In this document: positions 144 to 39,097 of the stretch, piece after piece
Numbering within the stretch: the first letter of the stretch is position 1
How the letters are laid out: each line of letters starts with the position of its first letter
Assembly (NCBI GenBank): GCA_050943415.1
Contig: JBMNPD010000005.1
Coordinates: forward strand, 1 to 40,614
Source of the DNA: Candidatus Dojkabacteria bacterium
GTDB lineage: Bacteria; Patescibacteriota; Dojkabacteria; SC72
Length of the DNA: 40,614 bases
Reading direction: 5' to 3'
Translations under genes and position numbers: made by a program
The notes under the pieces: model-generated
Database searches by the model: none
What the model was told of the DNA's origin: nothing
What the model saw: only the letters and a program-made list of their open reading frames with translations

Positions 144-2549
144 ATGCTTGTGAAAGACAATTCTCTTGTACACATAGTAGCAGAGAGTTATATTCCTCTT
201 AAAGAGGAGATTCTTTCATGCAAAAAAATTTCTGGTGTAGAAAGCGAATTCTACGAATTTACTGCAGAATTATTGGGATACATACTAAAAAAAGGAGTTT
301 GGCTCTCAGTAGGTAAAGAAGAAAGTCATAATCAGCTACAGTTAAGCATTGGGGATAAATTCGATCTAAATCCTTTCCTTAATCTTGGGTATCAGAGAGT
401 AGAGAGAGTATGGAACGAGGGAGAAATATCCATACTTGGAGATGTTGTCATAATCTGGCCATTTAGTATGGATAGCCTTGTACGTCTTTCCATTTTAGGC
501 GAAGAAGTTGAAAAAATTGATTTAGTAGAAGTATCTAGTAGAAAGAAATTTAGTTCTGTAGAAAGAAAAGTCTTTCTTGATGATTCATCTTCTGTAGTTG
601 TTGGTAATGAAAATCAAAAAGATTTTTTTAAGGTAGAGGTAAGTACAGATATTGGACAGGAAGAGGGTGTACATTTTGGAATTAGGAAAATAGCAGGCAT
701 GGATACTTTTGCCTCTGTCAAAGTAGTTTGGGAGATAGTTACCAATTACAAAAATCGCGGATACAAAGTAATATATTACACTTCAGATATTGATAACTAT
801 GATTTCGATTTAACAGAGCAGGAAAGGAAGAATATTGATGAAGTTATTTTGAAAAAAGATAGTGAGCACAGATATATTAGTAGAGGATTTGTATCTACTG
901 TTGGCAAAATAGTGGTACTGACAGACAGAGAAGTCCTAGGAGAGGTAGATTTGTCAGAATTTGAAAGTCGAAATATTGGGATTGATCCTGCATCTGTTGA
1001 TATTTTGAAGAAGATAGTACCTGATGACTATGTTGTACATAAAGATCATGGTATTGGTAAATATGTTGGAATTCACAAAAAAGAAAGTGGATACTACATG
1101 GAGATAGCGTATGCAGGTAAAGATAGGTTGTTTGTCCCGCTAACAGCATCAGAAAAGATTACAAAATATATTGGTGCTGGAAAAAGTAGACCAATTTTGA
1201 CAGGTTTGAATAGTGGAGTATGGAGGAGAATCTCTAGGAAAGCTAAGGAGAAGGCAGAGGAGATAGCAAGAGAGCTTCTACAGCTATATGCTTTGCGTAA
1301 GGCTCAGAAAGTAGATCCTGTAATTGATTCTGATTTTTCTCTTGATGAGCTAAATTCTTTTGTTAATGATTTTGAATTTAAAGATACCGATGATCAGATA
1401 TTGGCAACCAAACATATTGTGAATGATTTGCAACAAAACAAGCCAATGGACAGGCTACTTGTAGGTGATGTTGGATACGGTAAGACAGAAATAGCTATGA
1501 GAGCTATATTTGCTGTGGTAAATGCAGGCTATCAGGCAGCTATGTTAGTTCCTACAACTATACTAACTCAACAGCATTTGTATACTTTGCAATCTAGATT
1601 TAAAGGCTATCCTTTTAAGATTGCTTCTCTGTCTAGATTTGCTTCATCTAGGGAGAAAGAGAAAGTGTTAGAAGGACTTAAGAGTGGTGATATTGATATT
1701 GTTGTTGGGACTCATGCTTTGTTAAGTGATTCTGTTGAGTTTAAGAACTTAGGTTTACTTGTTGTAGATGAAGAGCAGAAGTTTGGAGTTAAGCAGAAAG
1801 AGAAAATTAAGTCTAAAAGGGTATCATGCAATGTTCTTTCTTTAACTGCTACACCAATTCCTCGAACTTTAAATATGGCGTTACTTGGTATTAGGGATAT
1901 ATCTGTGTTAGCTACTCCTCCAGCTGGTCGTTTGGAGATCATTAACAGTTTTGAAAAGTTTAATTGGGAGAGTGTAGAGAAAGCAATTAGCCTAGAATTG
2001 AAAAGAAATGGCCAAGTATATTTCTTACATAACCGTATAGAAACGATAGAGTATGTGTATGAGAAATTGACCAAGATGTTTCCTCAGCATAAAGTGGGGG
2101 TTGCTCATGGACGCATGGGTGTTCAAGATTTGTCTAATGTAATGAAGCAATTTAATGAAGGAAAGATTGATATTCTGCTTTGTACCACCATTATTGAGAA
2201 TGGTTTAGATGTTCCTAATGTTAATACTTTAATCATAGATGACATGAGTATGCTTGGTCTCTCTCAGGCGTATCAAATTAGAGGTAGAATAGGGAGGGCA
2301 AAGATTCAAGCGTATGCGTATTTCTACTACGAGAAGCTGAGAGGTAACTCTAAGCTTCGTCTTGATGCCATAAGGAATTCGCAAGAATTAGGTTCTGGTT
2401 TCTTGCTTTCTAACAAAGATTTAGAGATACGAGGAGCGGGAGATATACTAGGACATAATCAGTCCGGAGCGATAAATTCAGTTGGTTACGGCTTGTATTC
2501 GGAAATGTTAAATGAAGCAGTATCAAGGTTAAAGTCGATGAGTAAATAA
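144..2549 (+). CDS. mfd: Transcription-repair coupling factor (short form)
   Basis: CarD/RID-like VVHKDHGIGKY, MDRLLVGDVGYGKTE, DEEQKFG, TATPIPRT, QIRGRIGR and TRG motif DLEIRGAG. The true start may be GTG at 150. Confidence 0.92.
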   Translation: MLVKDNSLVHIVAESYIPLKEEILSCKKISGVESEFYEFTAELLGYILKKGVWLSVGKEESHNQLQLSIGDKFDLNPFLNLGYQRVERVWNEGEISILGDVVIIWPFSMDSLVRLSILGEEVEKIDLVEVSSRKKFSSVERKVFLDDSSSVVVGNENQKDFFKVEVSTDIGQEEGVHFGIRKIAGMDTFASVKVVWEIVTNYKNRGYKVIYYTSDIDNYDFDLTEQERKNIDEVILKKDSEHRYISRGFVSTVGKIVVLTDREVLGEVDLSEFESRNIGIDPASVDILKKIVPDDYVVHKDHGIGKYVGIHKKESGYYMEIAYAGKDRLFVPLTASEKITKYIGAGKSRPILTGLNSGVWRRISRKAKEKAEEIARELLQLYALRKAQKVDPVIDSDFSLDELNSFVNDFEFKDTDDQILATKHIVNDLQQNKPMDRLLVGDVGYGKTEIAMRAIFAVVNAGYQAAMLVPTTILTQQHLYTLQSRFKGYPFKIASLSRFASSREKEKVLEGLKSGDIDIVVGTHALLSDSVEFKNLGLLVVDEEQKFGVKQKEKIKSKRVSCNVLSLTATPIPRTLNMALLGIRDISVLATPPAGRLEIINSFEKFNWESVEKAISLELKRNGQVYFLHNRIETIEYVYEKLTKMFPQHKVGVAHGRMGVQDLSNVMKQFNEGKIDILLCTTIIENGLDVPNVNTLIIDDMSMLGLSQAYQIRGRIGRAKIQAYAYFYYEKLRGNSKLRLDAIRNSQELGSGFLLSNKDLEIRGAGDILGHNQSGAINSVGYGLYSEMLNEAVSRLKSMSK

Positions 2550-32278: not shown

Positions 32279-34816
32279 ATGTTAATCATCATTCTAATTA
32301 TATTAATAATTTCGATTCTGTTTGTTGTTTTCCTTATGATATGGGGAAGAAAAAATGTTGAGAAAGTTGAGGTATACGAAGATTTAAGAAATCCATGTGT
32401 TATGCAGGTACTTGTTCCTAGAGAGAATGATAAGTCTGCACTTGCTGCTGAGCAAATGTTTGCTTCCATACATGGTGTTTTAGAGGGTAACAAAAAGTGT
32501 CTTGATGTTGTGAGTTTGGAGATTGTGTCTATTGAGGATAGTGGTATTAAGTTTTTCATAGTAGCACCAAATCACTTAGCAAAGTTTGTAGAAGGTCAGG
32601 TATATGCTCAGTATCCTAATGCAGATATTCGTTTTGTTTCTGATTATGTGAATGAGAAGGTTGGTAGTAATGATAGTTTTGTTACAACTGGTGAGATTGA
32701 GATGGAAAAGGATTCCATATTTCCAATTAAAACATTTAGAAATTTTGAAGTAGATCCTCTTGCTGCAATAACTGGAGCTATGTCTAAATTGAATATGGGG
32801 GAACAGGTTTGGTTACAAATTATCATTCGTCCTGTGTCTAACTATTGGCAGGCTGAATCTAAAAACTACATAACAGCAATTAAGGAAGGATTAGATCCTA
32901 ACGGTATGTCCTTTGGTGCTTTGCTTGGTAAGATGGTTGGCGGTATAGGAAAGGCTTTGACGACATCTCCAGATGAAAAACCACAGAAGGAGGTTGTTAA
33001 ATTACAGCCAGGACAGGAGGAGGAGTTGAGTGAGATAGAGAATAAGACTTTGAAGGTAGGTTTTGAGTTTAAGATAAGGATAGTGACTAAAGCACAGGAT
33101 CAGTTTAGATCGGAACAAATCTTACGTGATGTGGTAGCAAGTTTTAAACAGTTTACTACAGCTCATCTTAATAACTTTATACATGCTGAACCAGAGAAGT
33201 CTGGTAAAGAGATATATGATGAGTATGTGGCAAGACATATGGAGGATGGTCAGGATATTGTAAATATTGAAGAGTTGGCATCTTTGTATCACTTGCCAAA
33301 TATCTCTGTAGAGACACCGAACATTGCTTGGAGTAGGTCTAAGAAATTAGAACCTCCTATGAATCTTCCAAAAGCGACTGATGGTGATGTTACTATATTT
33401 GGAGAGACAGATTATCGTGATGTTAAGGTTCAGTTTGGTTTGAAGAGAATGGATAGGCAGAGGCATTTCTACTTGCTTGGTAAAACTGGTACTGGTAAGT
33501 CTACACTGTTTAAAAATATGTTCATATCTGACATCTTGTCAGGAGATGGAGCTTGTTTTATTGATCCTCACGGTGATACTGTAGAAGAATTACTTCAATA
33601 TATTCCTCCTAACAGGGTAGAGGATGTTGTGTATTTTAATCCTGCTGATGTTGAGCGTCCAATCGGGTTTAATCTTCTTGAGCTAAAAGATCAATCACAG
33701 AGAGATTTAATTGCAGATGGGGTGGTAGAGGTGTTTAAGAAGCAGTTCGGAGATTCGTGGGGGCCTAGACTACAATATATTTTGACTAATGCAGTAGCTA
33801 CTACTCTAGAAGCTCAGGGTACAACTCTTTTGGCTGTTACGAGAATTTTAATAGATGCTAACTATCGTAAATTTATACTAAAACAGGTAAATGATCCCAT
33901 ACTGTATAAATTTTGGGTAGATGAATTTGCACAGATGTCACAGAACAATAAGTTACTTTCAGAGACGGTTTCTCCTATACAGAACAAGGTTGGTAGGTTC
34001 ATATCTTCTGCTGTTACAAGAAATATTGTGGGACAGGTGAAATCAACTATTGATTTGAGAGAGATTATGGATAACAAGAAGATCTTGTTGGTAAATTTAG
34101 CACAAGGTAAATTAGGTGAAGAGACAGCTTCTTTGTTAGGAGGAATGATTATTACTAGATTACAGGCTACCGCTATGGAGAGAGTAGATGTTCCAGAAGA
34201 GGAGAGAGAGGATTTCTTCTTGTATGTTGATGAGTTTCAGAATTTTGCGACTGAGTCTTTTGCAAAGATTCTTTCTGAAGCTAGAAAATACAAACTAGAT
34301 TTGACTATGACTAACCAATATATTGATCAACTTCCATTAACTGTAAGACAGGCTATATTTGGTAATGTTGGAACTTTGGGTTCTTTTGTAGTTAGTCAAT
34401 CTGATGCAAGTATATTGGAGAAAGAGTTTGCACCTATGGTTAGTGCAGGAGATTTGGTTTCTCTTGATGCGTACTCTATGTATGTAAAACTTTGTATTGA
34501 TGGAATGACATCAGTTCCGTTTAGTGCTAAATCTTTACCTATTAGGTATGAGAAGTTCGGATTAAGTGAGGAGATAATAGCTCATTCTAGGGAAAAGTAC
34601 GGCACTTCTAAGGTTGAGATAGAGGAGAAGATAGCTAAGTGGAGTAGTCAAACATATAGTGATAAGGGGAATAGGAGTAATATGAATGTTAAGCAGGAGC
34701 AAGGAAAACCTAAATCTCAAGAAAAGAAAGAAGTAATATCTAATACAGCTGAACAGCAGGAAGGTGGAGAGAAAGTTGATCAGGAAAATACTGCTAAACT
34801 AGAAAAAGACGAGTAG
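32279..34816 (+). CDS. VirD4/TraD-like (HerA/FtsK superfamily) membrane-anchored ATPase
   Basis: N-terminal TM, HFYLLGKTGTGKS, IDPHGD, LYVDEFQNF, LSEARKY, NQYIDQL. TTGCTA-17nt-TAGAAT promoter at 32242-32270. Confidence 0.85.
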   Translation: MLIIILIILIISILFVVFLMIWGRKNVEKVEVYEDLRNPCVMQVLVPRENDKSALAAEQMFASIHGVLEGNKKCLDVVSLEIVSIEDSGIKFFIVAPNHLAKFVEGQVYAQYPNADIRFVSDYVNEKVGSNDSFVTTGEIEMEKDSIFPIKTFRNFEVDPLAAITGAMSKLNMGEQVWLQIIIRPVSNYWQAESKNYITAIKEGLDPNGMSFGALLGKMVGGIGKALTTSPDEKPQKEVVKLQPGQEEELSEIENKTLKVGFEFKIRIVTKAQDQFRSEQILRDVVASFKQFTTAHLNNFIHAEPEKSGKEIYDEYVARHMEDGQDIVNIEELASLYHLPNISVETPNIAWSRSKKLEPPMNLPKATDGDVTIFGETDYRDVKVQFGLKRMDRQRHFYLLGKTGTGKSTLFKNMFISDILSGDGACFIDPHGDTVEELLQYIPPNRVEDVVYFNPADVERPIGFNLLELKDQSQRDLIADGVVEVFKKQFGDSWGPRLQYILTNAVATTLEAQGTTLLAVTRILIDANYRKFILKQVNDPILYKFWVDEFAQMSQNNKLLSETVSPIQNKVGRFISSAVTRNIVGQVKSTIDLREIMDNKKILLVNLAQGKLGEETASLLGGMIITRLQATAMERVDVPEEEREDFFLYVDEFQNFATESFAKILSEARKYKLDLTMTNQYIDQLPLTVRQAIFGNVGTLGSFVVSQSDASILEKEFAPMVSAGDLVSLDAYSMYVKLCIDGMTSVPFSAKSLPIRYEKFGLSEEIIAHSREKYGTSKVEIEEKIAKWSSQTYSDKGNRSNMNVKQEQGKPKSQEKKEVISNTAEQQEGGEKVDQENTAKLEKDE

Positions 34817-34868: not shown

Positions 34869-35648
34869 ATGTCAGGACATTCCAAGTGGGATACAATTAA
34901 ACATAAGAAAGCAATAAATGATGCTAAGAAAGGTAAGAGTTTCTCCAAGATATCAGCCTTGATATCTCATGCTGCTAAGCAAGGTGGTGGTGATCCTAAT
35001 ATGAATCCTACTTTGAGATTGTATATATCTAAAGCAAAGGAGTTGGGTTTTGCTACAGACAAGATAGAGAAAGCTATACAGAAAGGTACAGGAGAGAGTG
35101 GAGATGGAGTAATCTTTGAAGAGGTTACATATGAGGGGTTTGGTCCTTTTGGTATTCAGATAATTGTAGATACTTTGACGGATAACAAGAATAGAACGGT
35201 AGCTGATTTAAGGCAAATGTTTGATAGTATAGGAGGAAATATGGGTGATACAGGGTCTGTTTCTTGGAATTTTGAAACAAAGGGATATATTCAAATATTT
35301 TCAGGGCATATGGAGAAGTCACCTAAGTATGGTGAGGCAGATATTTATGTAGAGGATAATCCAGAAGAGGTTATGCTTTCTTTGATGGATATAGATGGTG
35401 TACTGGATATTGAAGAGATAGAGGAGAATGGTAAGAAAGGTTTTGTAATATATACCAAGTATGATAGTTTTGGATTTGTAAGAGATGAGATAGGTAAACT
35501 TGGGTATGTTATGAAGGATGCTGAGTTAATAAAGGAAGCGAATATCATAAAAGAATTATCACCAGAAGAGTATGAGAAAGCACAAGGAGCTATATCCAAA
35601 TTAGAAGAACATGATGATGTACAGAATGTTTGGAGTGATATAGAATAA
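34869..35648 (+). CDS. yebC: YebC/PmpR family protein
   Basis: MSGHSKW, DPNMNPTLR, YEGFGP, TDNKNRT, LEEHDDVQNVW. Confidence 0.96.
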   Translation: MSGHSKWDTIKHKKAINDAKKGKSFSKISALISHAAKQGGGDPNMNPTLRLYISKAKELGFATDKIEKAIQKGTGESGDGVIFEEVTYEGFGPFGIQIIVDTLTDNKNRTVADLRQMFDSIGGNMGDTGSVSWNFETKGYIQIFSGHMEKSPKYGEADIYVEDNPEEVMLSLMDIDGVLDIEEIEENGKKGFVIYTKYDSFGFVRDEIGKLGYVMKDAELIKEANIIKELSPEEYEKAQGAISKLEEHDDVQNVWSDIE

Positions 35649-35676
35649 GGACAAAAACCCTATGGCATAGTATAAT
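35648..35676 (+). promoter_or_regulatory. Cassette 1 promoter
   Basis: AGGACA-17nt-TATAAT. Confidence 0.65.
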
Positions 35677-35765
35677 ACGGTCATATCTATTATCTTAGAT
35701 ATAGGTATGTAGTTCATTCACAACAAAGGGTTGAAAGATTAGAAAATAAAACGAAAGGAGATGTT

Positions 35766-36119
35766 ATGAAAATAAAAGGAAACGTGTTGTTTGATAAAAG
35801 TTATGAGATTTTGTGTTATACAATAGTTCTTGTTTTTGCTTGTATCGTAGGGCTAAGTATAATAGATTTTGAACGATTTGTGATGGTTTTTCCGTTCCTT
35901 TGTTATATTCTAGCTATTGTTATGATTTTTGTTGGATTAGTTGGTTTTGTTACACAACAAAAACCTCTTTGTATAAAGGTATGTGCTTGGGGTATTGCTG
36001 GGGGATTAATCTGTATTGCTGGCGGATTAATTACCAGTGGTTTGGTGCTAGATTATACAATACTAGCAATTGTATTAATACTCTCACTAATCATAGCTTT
36101 TATTAGCTTGTTTTTGTAA
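35766..36119 (+). CDS. Small 4-TM membrane protein (cassette 1 cargo)
   Basis: 117 aa with four hydrophobic segments; SD AAAGGAG at 35754-35760. Confidence 0.8.
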   Translation: MKIKGNVLFDKSYEILCYTIVLVFACIVGLSIIDFERFVMVFPFLCYILAIVMIFVGLVGFVTQQKPLCIKVCAWGIAGGLICIAGGLITSGLVLDYTILAIVLILSLIIAFISLFL

Positions 36120-36138
36120 TTCAATCCTTGTTGTTACA

Positions 36139-36190
36139 AAGGGATTCTATATACATGTATTCATACAGTGTAAAGAATCCCTTCTTTTTT
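36139..36190 (+). terminator. Intrinsic terminator of cassette 1
   Basis: AAGGGATTCT/AGAATCCCTT stem followed by CTTTTTT. Confidence 0.75.
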
Positions 36191-36246
36191 ATATTCAAAT
36201 TAGAAGAGCATGATGATGTGCAGAATGTTTGGAGTGATATAGAGTA

Positions 36247-36275
36247 AAGACAAAGACCCTATAGTGTGGTATAAT
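36247..36275 (+). promoter_or_regulatory. Cassette 2 promoter
   Basis: AAGACA-17nt-TATAAT with extended TG. Confidence 0.7.
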
Positions 36276-36452
36276 ATGGTCGTATATGTACTATCTTAGT
36301 ATAGATATATAGTACGTTAACAACAAAGGATTATATATATTCTTCTTTTAATTTCACATATGCTGTATTTAGTTATTAAATATCTTTATTTAATAATTAT
36401 ATTCAGCATATGCTGAATACTTTGAAGGTCCTAATGAGAAAAGGAGAAAAAA

Positions 36453-36731
36453 ATGAATAAAAGAATAGTCATTGGTTTTAAAAAATTATTGGGAGGAAAG
36501 ACAGATGAAGCGGTGGAAAAAATCCGCATTGTAGGGAGAAGTGATGAAGTGGAAAACCGTATTAAAATCTTGGTAAGAATAGTGGTATTCAATGCTAAAA
36601 CGGGAAAAAAGGTCATGAACCTTTTTTACTTATCAGATGCAGAAATCACTAAACTAAAGGAATGGTTCGCTTCGAAGGATATGCATGTTCGTGAGGGAAT
36701 AGTTAAGGAGGTACAGATTACAATAGAATAA
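36453..36731 (+). CDS. Hypothetical 92-aa basic protein (cassette 2 cargo)
   Basis: SD AAGGAG at 36441-36446; stop codon overlaps the 3' arm. Confidence 0.75.
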   Translation: MNKRIVIGFKKLLGGKTDEAVEKIRIVGRSDEVENRIKILVRIVVFNAKTGKKVMNLFYLSDAEITKLKEWFASKDMHVREGIVKEVQITIE

Positions 36732-36747
36732 TAATCCTTTGTTAATA

Positions 36748-36788
36748 GGAGGAACTTTTTACAAAATACAGTAAGAAGTTCCTTCTTT
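36748..36788 (+). terminator. 3' hairpin of cassette 2
   Basis: GGAGGAACTTTTTAC/GTAAGAAGTTCCTTC (15 bp, 2 G-U) followed by TTT. Confidence 0.65.
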
Positions 36789-36812
36789 ACAATATATTTT
36801 CATCTAATAATA

Positions 36813-36841
36813 TTGTATCTAAACCTATAGTATGATATAAT
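36813..36841 (+). promoter_or_regulatory. Cassette 3 promoter
   Basis: TTGTAT-17nt-TATAAT with extended TG. Confidence 0.75.
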
Positions 36842-37027
36842 AAGACTAGATATCTAATATATCTTAGTATATATAGATATTACTGCTCATTAACAACAAA
36901 GGATTATATTTCTCCTTTTAATTCCACATATGCTGTATTTAGTTATTAAATATCTTTATTTAATGATTGTATTCAGCGTATGCTGGAAAAATAAAAAACC
37001 TCTGACAAAGAGAAAAAGGAGAGAGAA

Positions 37028-37357
37028 ATGGAAAACACAGTAAAAATTTTTGAGCAAATCACTCCTAATATCATTCTGGAGTGGAAGAGTGAAAGAGACA
37101 TTGTAATTCATGTCTCAAGCCCCATAATGGGTGTGAAATTGTCCGCGTATCTAGACGATACTTTGGACCAGAAGGTCTTAAACAGAATGTATGGATTAGC
37201 GGGCGTCAATTGTGTAAAAATCGATTTTTACACAATTGAAGTAAACATCGGATTGTTTTTCACTTTTGGAGCAAGAGAAGACGAAAAGTCTCTCTTGAAC
37301 AAACTGATTGACATTGCAATTGAAGCAGTGGAGATCAGCAAAAAACCTCCCTACTAG
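37028..37357 (+). CDS. Hypothetical protein, Nfu_N-like fold (cassette 3 cargo)
   Basis: SD AAGGAG; MYGLAGVNCVKIDFYTIEVNIG aligns by eye with the 38059 ORF. Confidence 0.7.
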   Translation: MENTVKIFEQITPNIILEWKSERDIVIHVSSPIMGVKLSAYLDDTLDQKVLNRMYGLAGVNCVKIDFYTIEVNIGLFFTFGAREDEKSLLNKLIDIAIEAVEISKKPPY

Positions 37358-37371
37358 ATCCTTTGTTGTTC

Positions 37372-37417
37372 GAGGGAACTTCCTTACATGTTTTTGTTTT
37401 TTGTAAGAAGTTCCCTC
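37372..37417 (+). terminator. 3' hairpin of cassette 3 (no U-tract)
   Basis: GAGGGAACTTC(C)TTACA/TGTAAGAAGTTCCCTC. Confidence 0.5.
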
Positions 37418-37521
37418 TAGAACACCTCTTTAGTATGTGTAAAAATATCTCTTTAATAGATATACAAGACTTTATCCAATTATAAATAAAAGAACGTTAA
37501 TATATACAATGTTATATAACA

Positions 37522-37550
37522 TTGAGGTATAACCTATAGAGTGATATAAT
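37522..37550 (+). promoter_or_regulatory. Cassette 4 promoter
   Basis: TTGAGG-17nt-TATAAT with extended TG. Confidence 0.75.
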
Positions 37551-37733
37551 GTGATCAGATATCTACTATCTTAGTATATAGATATTTGTTCATTAACAAC
37601 AAAGGATTATATATATTCTTCTTTTAATTCCACATATGCTGTATTTAGTTATTAAATATCTTTATTTAATGATTGTATTCAGCGTATGCTGGAAAAAATT
37701 TAAAAATATCCCTAATAGGGAAAGGAGAAAATT

Positions 37734-38042
37734 ATGTTGGTCAATCCTACTTATATCTCTTTAATCTCTCTAGAGATTAATAGAGAATCAGTCTCTGAGG
37801 GAAAGAGACGTAAAGTAAATTCGTATGGAAATAAAATTGAGAGGTTCTTTGAATTGAACTACTCAATTATTGGAGATGAGAAAAAAGAAAGATTCATTCA
37901 AGAATTGAAAAAATCTTTCGATGAATATGTTGAGGTTAAATTCCTCAGCAATAGTGAAATTGTAATTAGGAAAAAGAAGTCGGAATGGACTGAAGCAGAG
38001 CTTAGTTCTGTTTTACGTATTCTACACCAATTTGAAAGATAA
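37734..38042 (+). CDS. Hypothetical protein (cassette 4, cargo a)
   Basis: SD AAAGGAG at 37721-37727; 102 aa. Confidence 0.7.
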   Translation: MLVNPTYISLISLEINRESVSEGKRRKVNSYGNKIERFFELNYSIIGDEKKERFIQELKKSFDEYVEVKFLSNSEIVIRKKKSEWTEAELSSVLRILHQFER

Positions 38043-38058
38043 TAAAAAAGGAGAAAAA

Positions 38059-38466
38059 ATGTCAAATTTATCTGAAATTGACGAATCTCTCTTAAATAGG
38101 GTAAGAAGTAGCCCAGAAACTTTTGATGAGAGATTAGAATCAGGTATCACTATTGAATATTATCCATATGACTATGTTATCTCATTTCATGTTCCTTGGA
38201 AAATATCAGACAAAAATTTCTCATTGTGGAGAGCACAGTTCTATAAGCTTTCTACTGAGTTTACTGATGTTGATCCTGATGAGATGTGTAAACAAATAAT
38301 GTCGCAGATTTCTGAGATAGAAGGAGTAACAGATATAACTGCGAGTTATAATGAATTATCGGTATCAAAAAACCGGCTGTATAGCTGGGGTTGTAAAGAT
38401 GACAGGGAAAGTATACTTTTTAAGATTATTAAAATCTTAGAGAATTCTCGCCCTAATAGGGGGTAA
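38059..38466 (+). CDS. Hypothetical protein, Nfu_N-like fold (cassette 4, cargo b)
   Basis: Start moved to ATG 38059, after AAGGAG at 38048-38053; ISEIEGVTDITASYNELSVSKNRLYSW resembles the NifU N-terminal domain pattern. Confidence 0.72.
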   Translation: MSNLSEIDESLLNRVRSSPETFDERLESGITIEYYPYDYVISFHVPWKISDKNFSLWRAQFYKLSTEFTDVDPDEMCKQIMSQISEIEGVTDITASYNELSVSKNRLYSWGCKDDRESILFKIIKILENSRPNRG

Positions 38467-38504
38467 GGAGAATCAAAAACATAAAAATTAATCCTTTGTT
38501 GTTC

Positions 38505-38548
38505 AGAGGAACTTCTCTACATTTTTGTTTTTTGTAAGAAGTTCCTCT
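38505..38548 (+). terminator. 3' hairpin of cassette 4 (no U-tract)
   Basis: AGAGGAACTTCT/AGAAGTTCCTCT plus an inner TACA/TGTA stem. Confidence 0.5.
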
Positions 38549-38602
38549 TGACCATTCACTTGGTATATACAAAACCCCCTTTCTAGCATAGAATAATAGA
38601 AT

Positions 38603-39097
38603 ATGAGAATACTAGGATTAGACCCAGGAGTAGCTACAACAGGATGGGCAGTAGTTGATTTTGATCAACATTCATCTCCACATATAATAGATTACGGTTG
38701 TATACTAACAGAGAAGGGCTTAACACTCTCCCAAAGATTGAAAGAAATATACTGTGATATTAAAGAAATTATCAATACACATAAACCAGAATATGCAGGT
38801 ATTGAAACCCTCATATTCTGTAACAACGCTAAAACAGCAATAGCAGTAGGAGAGGCTAGGGGAGTTCTTCTTCTTGCATTAGAAGAAGAAAACATTCCCA
38901 TTCGAGAATTCACTCCACTACAAGTAAAAAACTCCATAGCAGGATATGGAAAAGCAGGTAAAAAACAAGTCCAAGAAAATGTAAAACTACTCTACGGATT
39001 AGATGAAATACCAAAACCTGATGATGCAGCAGATGCACTAGCCATAGCTATGGCTGCAGAGGTGGTTATTTCTAGAGAACAAATAAATCCTGTATAA
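38603..39097 (+). CDS. ruvC: Holliday junction resolvase RuvC
   Basis: ILGLDPG, GEARGV, TPLQVK, DDAADALA. Confidence 0.97.
   Translation: MRILGLDPGVATTGWAVVDFDQHSSPHIIDYGCILTEKGLTLSQRLKEIYCDIKEIINTHKPEYAGIETLIFCNNAKTAIAVGEARGVLLLALEEENIPIREFTPLQVKNSIAGYGKAGKKQVQENVKLLYGLDEIPKPDDAADALAIAMAAEVVISREQINPV

Follow-up and report, generated by a model that had tools for sequence, protein, structure and literature searches.

A stretch of 40,614 nucleotides (nt) of DNA from Candidatus Dojkabacteria, analyzed here at its full length and referred to as the window, raises the question of why neighboring open reading frames (ORFs) that are unrelated to each other should each lie between two short sequences, or arms, that are complementary to one another. 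The window is contig C10 of genome G000, which comprises 800 kb on 32 contigs, has ~34% G+C and is 99% complete. Flanked by a yebC-like gene (34869-35648) on one side and by the genes ruvC, ruvA and ruvB (38603 onward) on the other, its cassette region (35650-38600) contains four cassette units, all of which bear a pair of arms. In total, we collected 39 units, which come from four genera of one Candidatus Dojkabacteria family. We find that complementarity of the arms is kept by compensatory change in at least 39 units, and that the arms have a fixed geometry with respect to promoter, stop codon and terminator. As an explanation we favor, with moderate confidence and by analogy with the hbs messenger RNA (mRNA), a long-range helix between the untranslated regions (UTRs) on the 5' and the 3' side, which the arms would form as part of a portable UTR scaffold.

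Covariation of the arms

The four arm pairs of the window had been reported in a preliminary description of the sequence, and each of them was confirmed. In unit 2, positions 36322-36334 of the 5' arm (36319-36334) pair with the 3' arm (36731-36743) in 13 perfect base pairs (bp), and the 3' arm overlaps the final base of the stop codon. The pairing in unit 3 is also 13 bp and perfect (36892-36904 with 37358-37370, the latter immediately 3' of the TAG stop codon); the predicted fold adds a 14th pair, a G.U, such that the 5' arm at 36892-36906 has 14 predicted pairs with 37357-37370. Unit 4 has 15 perfect bp between 37595-37609 and 38489-38503. The arms of unit 1 (35720-35735 and, immediately 3' of the stop codon, 36120-36134) are variants that form 7 + 8 bp, including one G.U, and leave a single A bulged. 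The preliminary description read the change of TTGAA/TTCAA on both sides of unit 1 as compensation specific to that unit; the change is real, and is one among several independent double changes in relatives. It was also claimed that the arms enclose each unit's ORF. This is correct as to the enclosure; however, what is enclosed is not the ORF alone, but the leader together with one or more ORFs, of which unit 4 holds two.

The exact 12-mer AACAAAGGATTA is present in five copies in the 40.6-kb window, all of them within 36322-38500. When up to two mismatches are allowed, there are 21 matches versus 9.9 expected, and none of 100 shuffles reaches 21. In a scan of the 736 ORFs of G000, six have a perfect 5'/3' helix of at least 12 bp, versus ~1.2 after permutation; these six include units 2 and 3 and a diverged cassette on another contig. 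Gapped duplex energies were uninformative for this genome-wide scan, as the top matches were shadow ORFs with loose duplexes. We rejected the idea that 5'/3' pairing is a general property of genes in G000, since, apart from the cassettes and a small number of other ORFs, the distribution of perfect helices matches that after permutation.

For comparison among units, we curated 26 non-redundant units; in four of these, the position of the 3' arm between stop codon and terminator was chosen by eye. The arms share a conserved core, ACAA(A)GG / CC(U)UUGU, while their distal part varies and matches within the unit. Double changes among the curated and the more diverged units include GGATTAT/ATAATCC, GGTTTT/AAAACC, GGGGTT/AACCCC and GGTTAA/TTAACC, as well as AAGACAAAGG/CCTTTGTCTT, AATTAAGGTCTA/TAGACCTTAATT and GGGTTGAA/TTCAATCC, and there are extensions specific to individual units, e.g., AATGTTT/AAACATT and TTCTTAA/TTAAGAA. 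The column that follows the GG is paired in 25 of the 26 units, with five types of pair (AU 14, UA 7, GU 2, GC 1, UG 1; the remaining unit has UU), and arm positions -6 to +5 are paired in 20-26 of the 26.

Covariation in further copies had been set beforehand as a check on the preliminary description, and arms of the same unit do pair better than swapped ones. We permuted the 3' arms among units 20000 times. The distal duplex averages -7.66 kcal/mol for own-unit arms versus -5.54 kcal/mol for swapped arms, and the mean number of contiguous pairs after the GG is 4.04 versus 1.92; for either measure, 0 of 20000 permutations of the 26 units reach the own-unit value. Without the four arms placed by eye, 5/20000 permutations reach it for duplex energy and 0/20000 for contiguous pairs. 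When swapping is confined to classes of units with the same first variable base, the corresponding numbers are 201/20000 and 526/20000.

A further 12 units, found with a covariance model of the 5' module, have diverged arm sequences, including AAGACAAAGG..., AATTAAGGTCTA, AACATAGGATTAGT, AAAAAGGATCTAG, TTAATAACGAT and ATTAAGTATT. A complementary partner is present at the junction of stop codon and terminator in 12/12 of these units. In a blind scan of 750-2510 downstream positions, the partner at the junction ranked first in 7/12 and among the top three in 9/12, and the other three were identified by inspection. These units bear on the proposal that the complementarity has no function, and is instead a relic of how the scaffold originated (e.g., by inverted duplication) that was kept by common ancestry and template-switch repair. 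It is consistent with such a relic that the units fall into a few related scaffold lineages and that the arm core is conserved in sequence. However, the arms are almost wholly turned over between genera, whereas complementarity and position are retained in all 12 diverged units, and several double changes are independent. Moreover, the arms of a unit are 340-1860 nt apart, which is too far for quasi-palindrome correction. We regard a functionless relic as extremely improbable.

Thermodynamic folding agrees with the comparative data. We folded the whole predicted transcripts (464-1343 nt) of 24 units, leaving out two longer units. The arms are paired with each other in the minimum-energy fold of all 24, and with a pair probability above 0.9 in 21. 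For 10 short units aligned over their whole length with MAFFT (794 columns), RNAalifold gave the closing helix as the sole consensus structure, with 11 pairs, two of which have double changes. The covariation, the 12 diverged units, the 24 individual folds and the consensus of 10 units thus support what the preliminary description had proposed, namely pairing within the unit into a panhandle from which the ORF is looped out.

RNA helix or DNA repeat

Complementary arms could act in RNA or in DNA, and their position within the unit is informative in this respect. The units share a layout that consists of a promoter, a hairpin or palindrome (P1) at the predicted start of the transcript, a linker, the 5' arm, an optional structured leader, one or more ORFs, the 3' arm and a terminator hairpin. 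The promoters are of the sigma-70 type, mostly with a TG-extended -10 element. From the end of the -10 element to the GG of the arm there are 49-59 nt in all 26 curated units; the distance from the end of the stop codon to the CC of the arm is -10 to +11 nt in 21 of the 26 (median 4); and the terminator hairpin follows the arm after 4-15 nt in 26/26. The 5' arm ends ~40-150 nt upstream of the start codon. This geometry places the arms inside the transcribed part, with promoter and terminator outside of the arms.

We consider it most likely that the arms act as RNA rather than DNA, a judgment based on their position and not on their chemistry. The arms are fixed inside a promoter-terminator unit and the stop codon abuts the 3' arm. 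In addition, the arms tolerate bulges and vary among the units of a single genome, a variation that one DNA-binding recombinase would not accept. Finally, other structures of the same putative transcript covary: in the leader hairpin, RNAalifold gives 21 pairs, of which 9 have double changes, with many G.U pairs that are specific to the sense strand, and the terminator stems covary across units as well. RNA-library contigs from three studies match parts of the ORFs of units 1, 3 and 4 without differences, and extend over 37010-37347 in unit 3 and over 38082-38398 in the second ORF of unit 4.

It is important to consider the points that weigh against an RNA helix with a role like that in hbs. 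The arms have no strand asymmetry: the sense duplex is more stable than the antisense duplex in 17 of 38 units and less stable in 21, with an average difference (sense minus antisense) of -0.06 kcal/mol (Wilcoxon p 0.88), and G.U pairs number 46 in sense versus 47 in antisense. The arms by themselves therefore indicate neither RNA versus DNA nor a strand. The RNA contigs are assembled, have low depth, cover only ORF interiors and have undefined ends, and carry-over of DNA is possible. Several terminator hairpins of G000 do not have a T-run, and so the 3' ends are uncertain. With respect to covariation, the units represent a few scaffold lineages, and part of the signal is shared ancestry; the swap test within classes is weaker, as ~1-3% of permutations reach the own-unit value, and 4 of the 26 3' arms were, as noted, set by eye. 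Finally, we transfer the stabilizing function from a single studied gene of a different phylum. Three 5'G:3'U pairs next to the core had at one point seemed to favor RNA by G.U asymmetry, an argument that we dropped given the unbiased comparison of 38 units.

The alternative at the DNA level, which the preliminary description had also raised, is that the arms are inverted repeats for site-specific inversion, such that the ORF would be switched on or off relative to its promoter, or for the excision or exchange of cassettes. If partner sites had to be identical, this requirement would lead to unit-specific matching too. Arms that are essentially Watson-Crick and without strand bias fit this alternative, as do signs that cassettes are mobile: near-identical 5' modules precede unrelated ORFs (e.g., in units G011_h and G011_C6), contigs of another sample (run X3) diverge from the window at 36487 and 38040, which indicates that cassettes turn over, and one relative has an apparently empty site. 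However, the ORF is in sense orientation to the promoter in all 39 assembled units, and joints that would correspond to inverted or excised forms were absent from the DNA contigs, which is weak evidence because only assembled contigs could be searched. Bulges, mismatches and unit-specific extensions within one genome are unlike the site of a single recombinase, and outside of the arms are the promoter and the terminator, both of them conserved together with the unit. The G000 genome, which is 99% complete, contains no serine recombinase and no reverse transcriptase (no match to RVT_1). It has two tyrosine recombinases, on contigs C9 and C31, and none on the contigs that bear cassettes (C10, C2, C30 and C11). 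On these grounds, among them the lack of a recombinase nearby, the excision or inversion hypothesis is disfavored, and we judge it very unlikely.

We also considered pairing across the intergenic region, in the manner of attC sites, and ruled it out, as it is worse than pairing across the ORF: of 11 junctions between tandem units, 5 have 0 contiguous distal pairs. Where tandem units have differing arm types, a unit's 3' arm fails to match the 5' arm of the unit that follows it, which implies that the helix encloses the ORF and not the spacer. The array does resemble integron cassettes in that small cassettes with unrelated ORFs and short conserved inverted repeats are arranged in tandem at a fixed hot spot, here between yebC and ruvC. 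In contrast to integron cassettes, promoter and terminator come with every unit, what lies between the repeats is the ORF and not an intergenic recombination site, and we found neither an adjoining integron integrase nor inverted copies in the array. The cassettes differ from retrons, which have a1/a2 closing repeats, in that the genome lacks a reverse transcriptase as judged by RVT_1, and from invertons, whose invertase gene is usually nearby, in that there is no serine recombinase in G000 and no tyrosine recombinase on the cassette contigs.

Possible roles of the closing helix

The closest parallel is the hbs mRNA of Bacillus subtilis (Braun, Durand and Condon 2017; PMC5737220). In this mRNA, 14 nt that immediately follow a 5' hairpin form a duplex with nucleotides immediately ahead of the terminator, at -19 kcal/mol. 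This pairing forms in vivo, restrains cleavage by RNase Y in the leader and alters transcript stability; compensatory mutants restore it. In the cassettes, too, a stretch of ~14 nt after a 5' hairpin would pair with a stretch before the terminator, and the energies are similar, with -12 to -25 kcal/mol predicted for the cassettes. The host also has RNase Y and RNase J: in G000, each of the two exceeds the curated cut-off, RNase J (on C8) with 506.7 bits and RNase Y (on C19) with 519.4 bits, and no RNase E/G was found in this genome. Judging by these genes, the decay machinery appears to be of the Bacillus type. The cassettes differ from hbs in that hbs is one gene that was studied experimentally, whereas the cassette helix belongs to the scaffold of at least 39 units with unrelated ORFs and is known from comparative covariation. 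A further difference is that the 3' partner in the cassettes abuts or overlaps the stop codon.

Largely by analogy with this case, we infer that the helix forms in the RNA and governs the fate of the message. Each unit would be an independent transcription unit on the shared portable UTR scaffold. In its mRNA, a stretch of 12-16 nt located ~40 nt from the 5' end would pair between the stop codon and the terminator hairpin, and would thereby close the message (leader and ORF or ORFs) into a panhandle, with the outer end of the helix joining the 5' hairpin to the terminator hairpin. The closing helix would then hold two hairpin-protected ends together, and would shield the linker and the leader from RNase Y and RNase J. 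Ribosomes that terminate would be obliged to enter the 3' arm and would transiently open the helix. Because the stop codon is inside or beside the 3' arm, each terminating ribosome would do so, and the stability of the message would thus be linked to its translation. The conserved core (ACAAAGG / CCUUUGU) and the linker might perhaps be read by a nuclease or another protein. With regard to distance, a preprint on B. subtilis mRNAs (PMC12697547) shows anti-Shine-Dalgarno-like stretches that act at long range, which makes base-pairing over such distances plausible in vivo.

The closing helix might alternatively be a stalk for RNase III. Stalks of ribosomal RNA precursors are processed by RNase III at a double-stranded stem. 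By this explanation, the closing helix would stack on a second helix, formed between the Shine-Dalgarno (SD) region and an upstream anti-SD stretch, and be cut, which would either mature the mRNA by removing its 5' hairpin and terminator or start its decay. The genome encodes RNase III, and the predicted structures of units 3 and 4 would offer a substrate: a closing helix of 14-15 bp is followed, after 3-6 nt, by a helix of 8-11 bp, for ~25 bp in total. The conserved arm core could then be a determinant of reactivity. There is also a precedent in the icaR mRNA of Staphylococcus aureus, whose 5'/3' pairing makes an RNase III substrate (PMC3868564). However, at 10-16 bp the helices are short, bulges frequently interrupt them, and units without a leader (e.g., unit 1 and G004_a) do not have the stacked second helix in the same form. 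We consider an RNase III stalk unlikely, although it is compatible with an hbs-like stabilizing helix and does not exclude it.

The icaR mRNA is instructive in a second way. Its 3' UTR pairs with the real SD and blocks initiation (PMC3868564). The cassettes resemble it in that a pyrimidine-rich, anti-SD-like motif of the 3' UTR pairs with a purine-rich motif of the 5' UTR, with a possible RNase III substrate as the result (PMC3868564). The cassettes are unlike it in that their 3' arm pairs with an SD-like stretch ~40-150 nt before the start codon, and the real SD is predicted to be paired locally. In the default predicted folds of units 3 and 4, the ribosome binding site (RBS) would be hidden by this local anti-SD pairing.

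Local pairing of this kind is an element of type I toxin mRNAs, to which the preliminary description had likened the units. By analogy with hok, paired ends could silence the full-length mRNA until trimming of its 3' end frees the 5' arm, which would capture the anti-SD stretch and release the RBS. The architecture does fit. As in type I toxin mRNAs, the full-length transcript is closed by 5'-3' pairing (predicted in 24/24 units), and the order of elements matches tac/fbi, ucb and SD of the hok mRNA, including an upstream pyrimidine box that pairs with the SD (PMC9841398). The 5' arm has an SD-like AAAGGA, followed within 3-8 nt by a pyrimidine stretch that, in units 3 and 4, the unit at C2 and others, is predicted to pair with the real SD. 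In other respects, however, the analogy is not supported. When the 3' arm and terminator were deleted in silico from 19 units, thermodynamic folding, which was the only criterion, gave no consistent opening of the RBS: its unpaired probability rose in some units and fell in others (mean values changed from 0.28 to 0.26 in unit 3 and from 0.20 to 0.25 in unit 4), and the RBS is predicted to stay paired with the local anti-SD stretch with or without the 3' arm. The ORF of a type I toxin is single, small (~60 amino acids (aa) or less) and hydrophobic, whereas the cassette ORFs encode 71-374 aa, are mostly soluble and sometimes number two or three per unit. We found no antisense RNA and no conserved antisense promoter; the single promoter-like site, in unit 2 (36357-36330), depends on the ATTATA arm variant and is not conserved in other arm variants. 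We consider a hok-like lock quite unlikely.

A more far-reaching proposal, which we put forward as a rather doubtful possibility, is that the scaffold is a natural "mRNA chassis" of Dojkabacteria, with a regulated leader that hides the RBS and a slot for any ORF. The helix would be obligatory and would circularize the message, and terminating ribosomes, as they open it, would return to the nearby start. If true, the slot would receive one unrelated accessory gene after another at a hot spot of the chromosome, and the arrangement, which would couple translation, re-initiation and decay, would be to bacteria what the closed loop is to eukaryotes.

The units, their contents and their relatives

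All features of the units in the window are on the plus strand. The promoter of unit 1 (35648-35676; AGGACA, 17 nt, TATAAT) has 10/12 matches to the consensus and begins at the last base of the yebC-like stop codon. It is followed by P1 at 35682-35709, at the predicted transcript start, with a predicted helix of 35682-35690/35701-35709. The unit has no leader hairpin; its ORF (35766-36119) encodes a hydrophobic protein of 117 aa that belongs to no family, and its terminator hairpin with T-run extends over 36139-36190 (predicted helix 36139-36148/36174-36183, ~-21 kcal/mol). A further perfect 14-bp complement (35793-35806/36091-36104) joins the start and the end of the coding region, and would extend the predicted panhandle well into the ORF. 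Downstream of unit 1 there is a second copy of the final 58 bases of the yebC-like gene and of the promoter that follows them (35591-35686 versus 36190-36285, 88% identical). This duplication gives unit 1 the appearance of an insertion, or of a tandem duplication, in which the end of the gene was carried along.

The promoter of unit 2 (36247-36275; AAGACA, 17 nt, TATAAT, with TG before the -10 element) is within this duplicated yebC 3' end. P1 follows at 36286-36317, as judged by the predicted fold and the alignment, and the leader hairpin, at 36357-36412, consists of a stem, a conserved internal loop and a stem. The ORF (36453-36731) encodes 92 aa without a family, and the terminator hairpin (36747-36786) has a predicted stem of 16 bp. 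For unit 3, the promoter (36813-36841; TTGTAT, 17 nt, TATAAT, TG before the -10 element) was below the cut-off of the consensus scan and was read from the sequence and aligned with the other units. The predicted P1 is at 36849-36881 and the leader at 36909-37024, in which the leader hairpin (36927-36982) is enclosed by a predicted helix of the anti-SD stretch (36909-36919) and the SD region (37014-37024). The unit ends with an ORF for 109 aa of no family (37028-37357) and a terminator-like hairpin without a T-run (37372-37417).

Unit 4 has a promoter that was detected by the consensus scan (37522-37550; TTGAGG, 17 nt, TATAAT, TG before the -10 element), a predicted P1 at 37556-37588, and a leader at 37616-37729, in which the leader hairpin (37633-37688) is again surrounded by predicted pairing, here of the anti-SD stretch at 37616-37623 and the SD region at 37722-37729. 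Its first ORF (37734-38042) encodes 102 aa and has no family, and its second (38059-38466) encodes 135 aa, starting from an ATG behind its own SD. A terminator-like hairpin without a T-run (38505-38548) precedes the start of ruvC at 38603. In units 2-4, the pyrimidine stretch that follows the 5' arm is predicted to pair with the SD region around a two-stem leader hairpin of 56 nt.

This leader hairpin is present in 20 of the 26 curated units. Its internal loop is conserved, with UAUUURG or UAUAUGA on the 5' side and UGUAUU on the 3' side. It is a candidate for a new cis-regulatory RNA that might bind a protein or another ligand, and has no family in Rfam. A scan with the Rfam covariance models detected two transfer RNAs in the window, no family for the units and nothing near threshold in 35600-38620. 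By contrast with the covarying stems, the P1 palindrome (ATATCTA..TATCTTAGTATATAGATAT) is near-invariant in sequence across the 26 units and does not covary, and it may be a protein operator instead of, or besides, an RNA hairpin. The linker between P1 and the 5' arm is conserved and predicted to be single-stranded (UGUUCAUUA / TGTTCATTA).

The proteins encoded by the cassettes are diverse. Their lengths are those given above, with a 47-aa frame nested in a longer ORF in one case, and a few are hydrophobic (those of unit 1 and G011_h). The five cassette ORFs of the window reach neither a curated cut-off nor a convincing E-value in Pfam, PADLOC or PHROGs, and an all-against-all BLAST of 27 cassette proteins linked only a few of them. 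Using the ESM Atlas, the product of the second ORF of unit 4 resembles Nfu_N (PF08712), with a feature score of 0.86 and a structure TM of 0.65; we treat this predicted Nfu_N-like fold as a lead only. Several other cassette proteins have, by eye, a similar terminal strand-helix motif.

As to turnover, the run X3 contigs mentioned above are DNA contigs of another bioreactor sample, which follow the window up to 36487, just inside the unit 2 ORF, and up to 38040, at the end of unit 4's first ORF, and then continue into unrelated sequence. This divergence suggests alternative cassette contents in related strains. Taken together with near-identical modules in front of unrelated ORFs, it indicates that the content of the cassettes turns over while the scaffold stays. 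In the relative at locus L261 (G018:C43, ~595-700, minus strand), a promoter and P1 are followed directly by the region upstream of yebC, and arms, ORF and terminator are all missing; from its sequence, this locus appears to be an "empty" site. Several relatives have a stretch similar to a 3' arm, ATCCTTTGTGTT, before yebC. Upstream of the yebC-like gene in the window, a gene at 32279-34816 encodes 845 aa with weak matches to domains of a type IV secretion coupling protein and a HerA-type ATPase.

The covariance model finds six copies of the 5' module in G000, namely the four in the window, C2:6793 and C30:6436. A seventh cassette of this genome, at C11:16218-16574 (minus strand), is diverged and was found only via the scan for 5'/3' complementarity. 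It has the promoter/P1 module with a different arm pair, GAATTACAACTT/AAGTTGTAATTC, and its product, of 118 aa, has a hydrophobic stretch. A different repeated cassette type is represented by an ORF for 99 aa at C30:43569-43868 (minus strand), which has a 12-bp 5'/3' complement that overlaps the stop codon, a direct repeat of ~100 nt on both flanks and no P1 module.

In other genomes, a search with the 5' module gave matches in 13 of 22 genomes of the same genus, and one relative, G011, has a tandem array of at least eight units around its yebC and ruvC genes on contig C22. Counting G000, the covariance model matches 16 of 120 genomes from the order. All of them belong to one family, and by genus the matches are distributed as g1 10/22, g15 3/9, g2 1/10 and g11 1/3. 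A metagenome scan with the P1 motif, in which the arms were unconstrained, returned 61 loci; true units account for ~10 of these, in 9 distinct places. With a degenerate arm pattern, the matches listed for genome contigs were mostly chance occurrences in unrelated taxa.

The kind of interaction described here is already known, and has so far been shown only for single genes (hbs, icaR and hok-type toxins). What is new is end-pairing as a conserved, covarying part of a portable UTR scaffold that is common to dozens of cassettes with unrelated ORFs, and the presence of these cassettes at a recombination-prone hot spot in a Patescibacteria lineage. Our literature searches found no paper that links Dojkabacteria with UTRs; a looser search, on long-range mRNA interactions in Patescibacteria, shows only that the papers it listed do not contain the word Patescibacteria.

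The cassettes show the same helix kept, by compensatory change, across dozens of messages whose coding regions are unrelated. In a lineage with a minimal genome and what appears to be Bacillus-type decay, they constitute a natural series of arm variants in which the effects of end-pairing on stability, processing and translation could be compared. They also point to modular expression of fast-changing accessory genes in uncultivated Patescibacteria.

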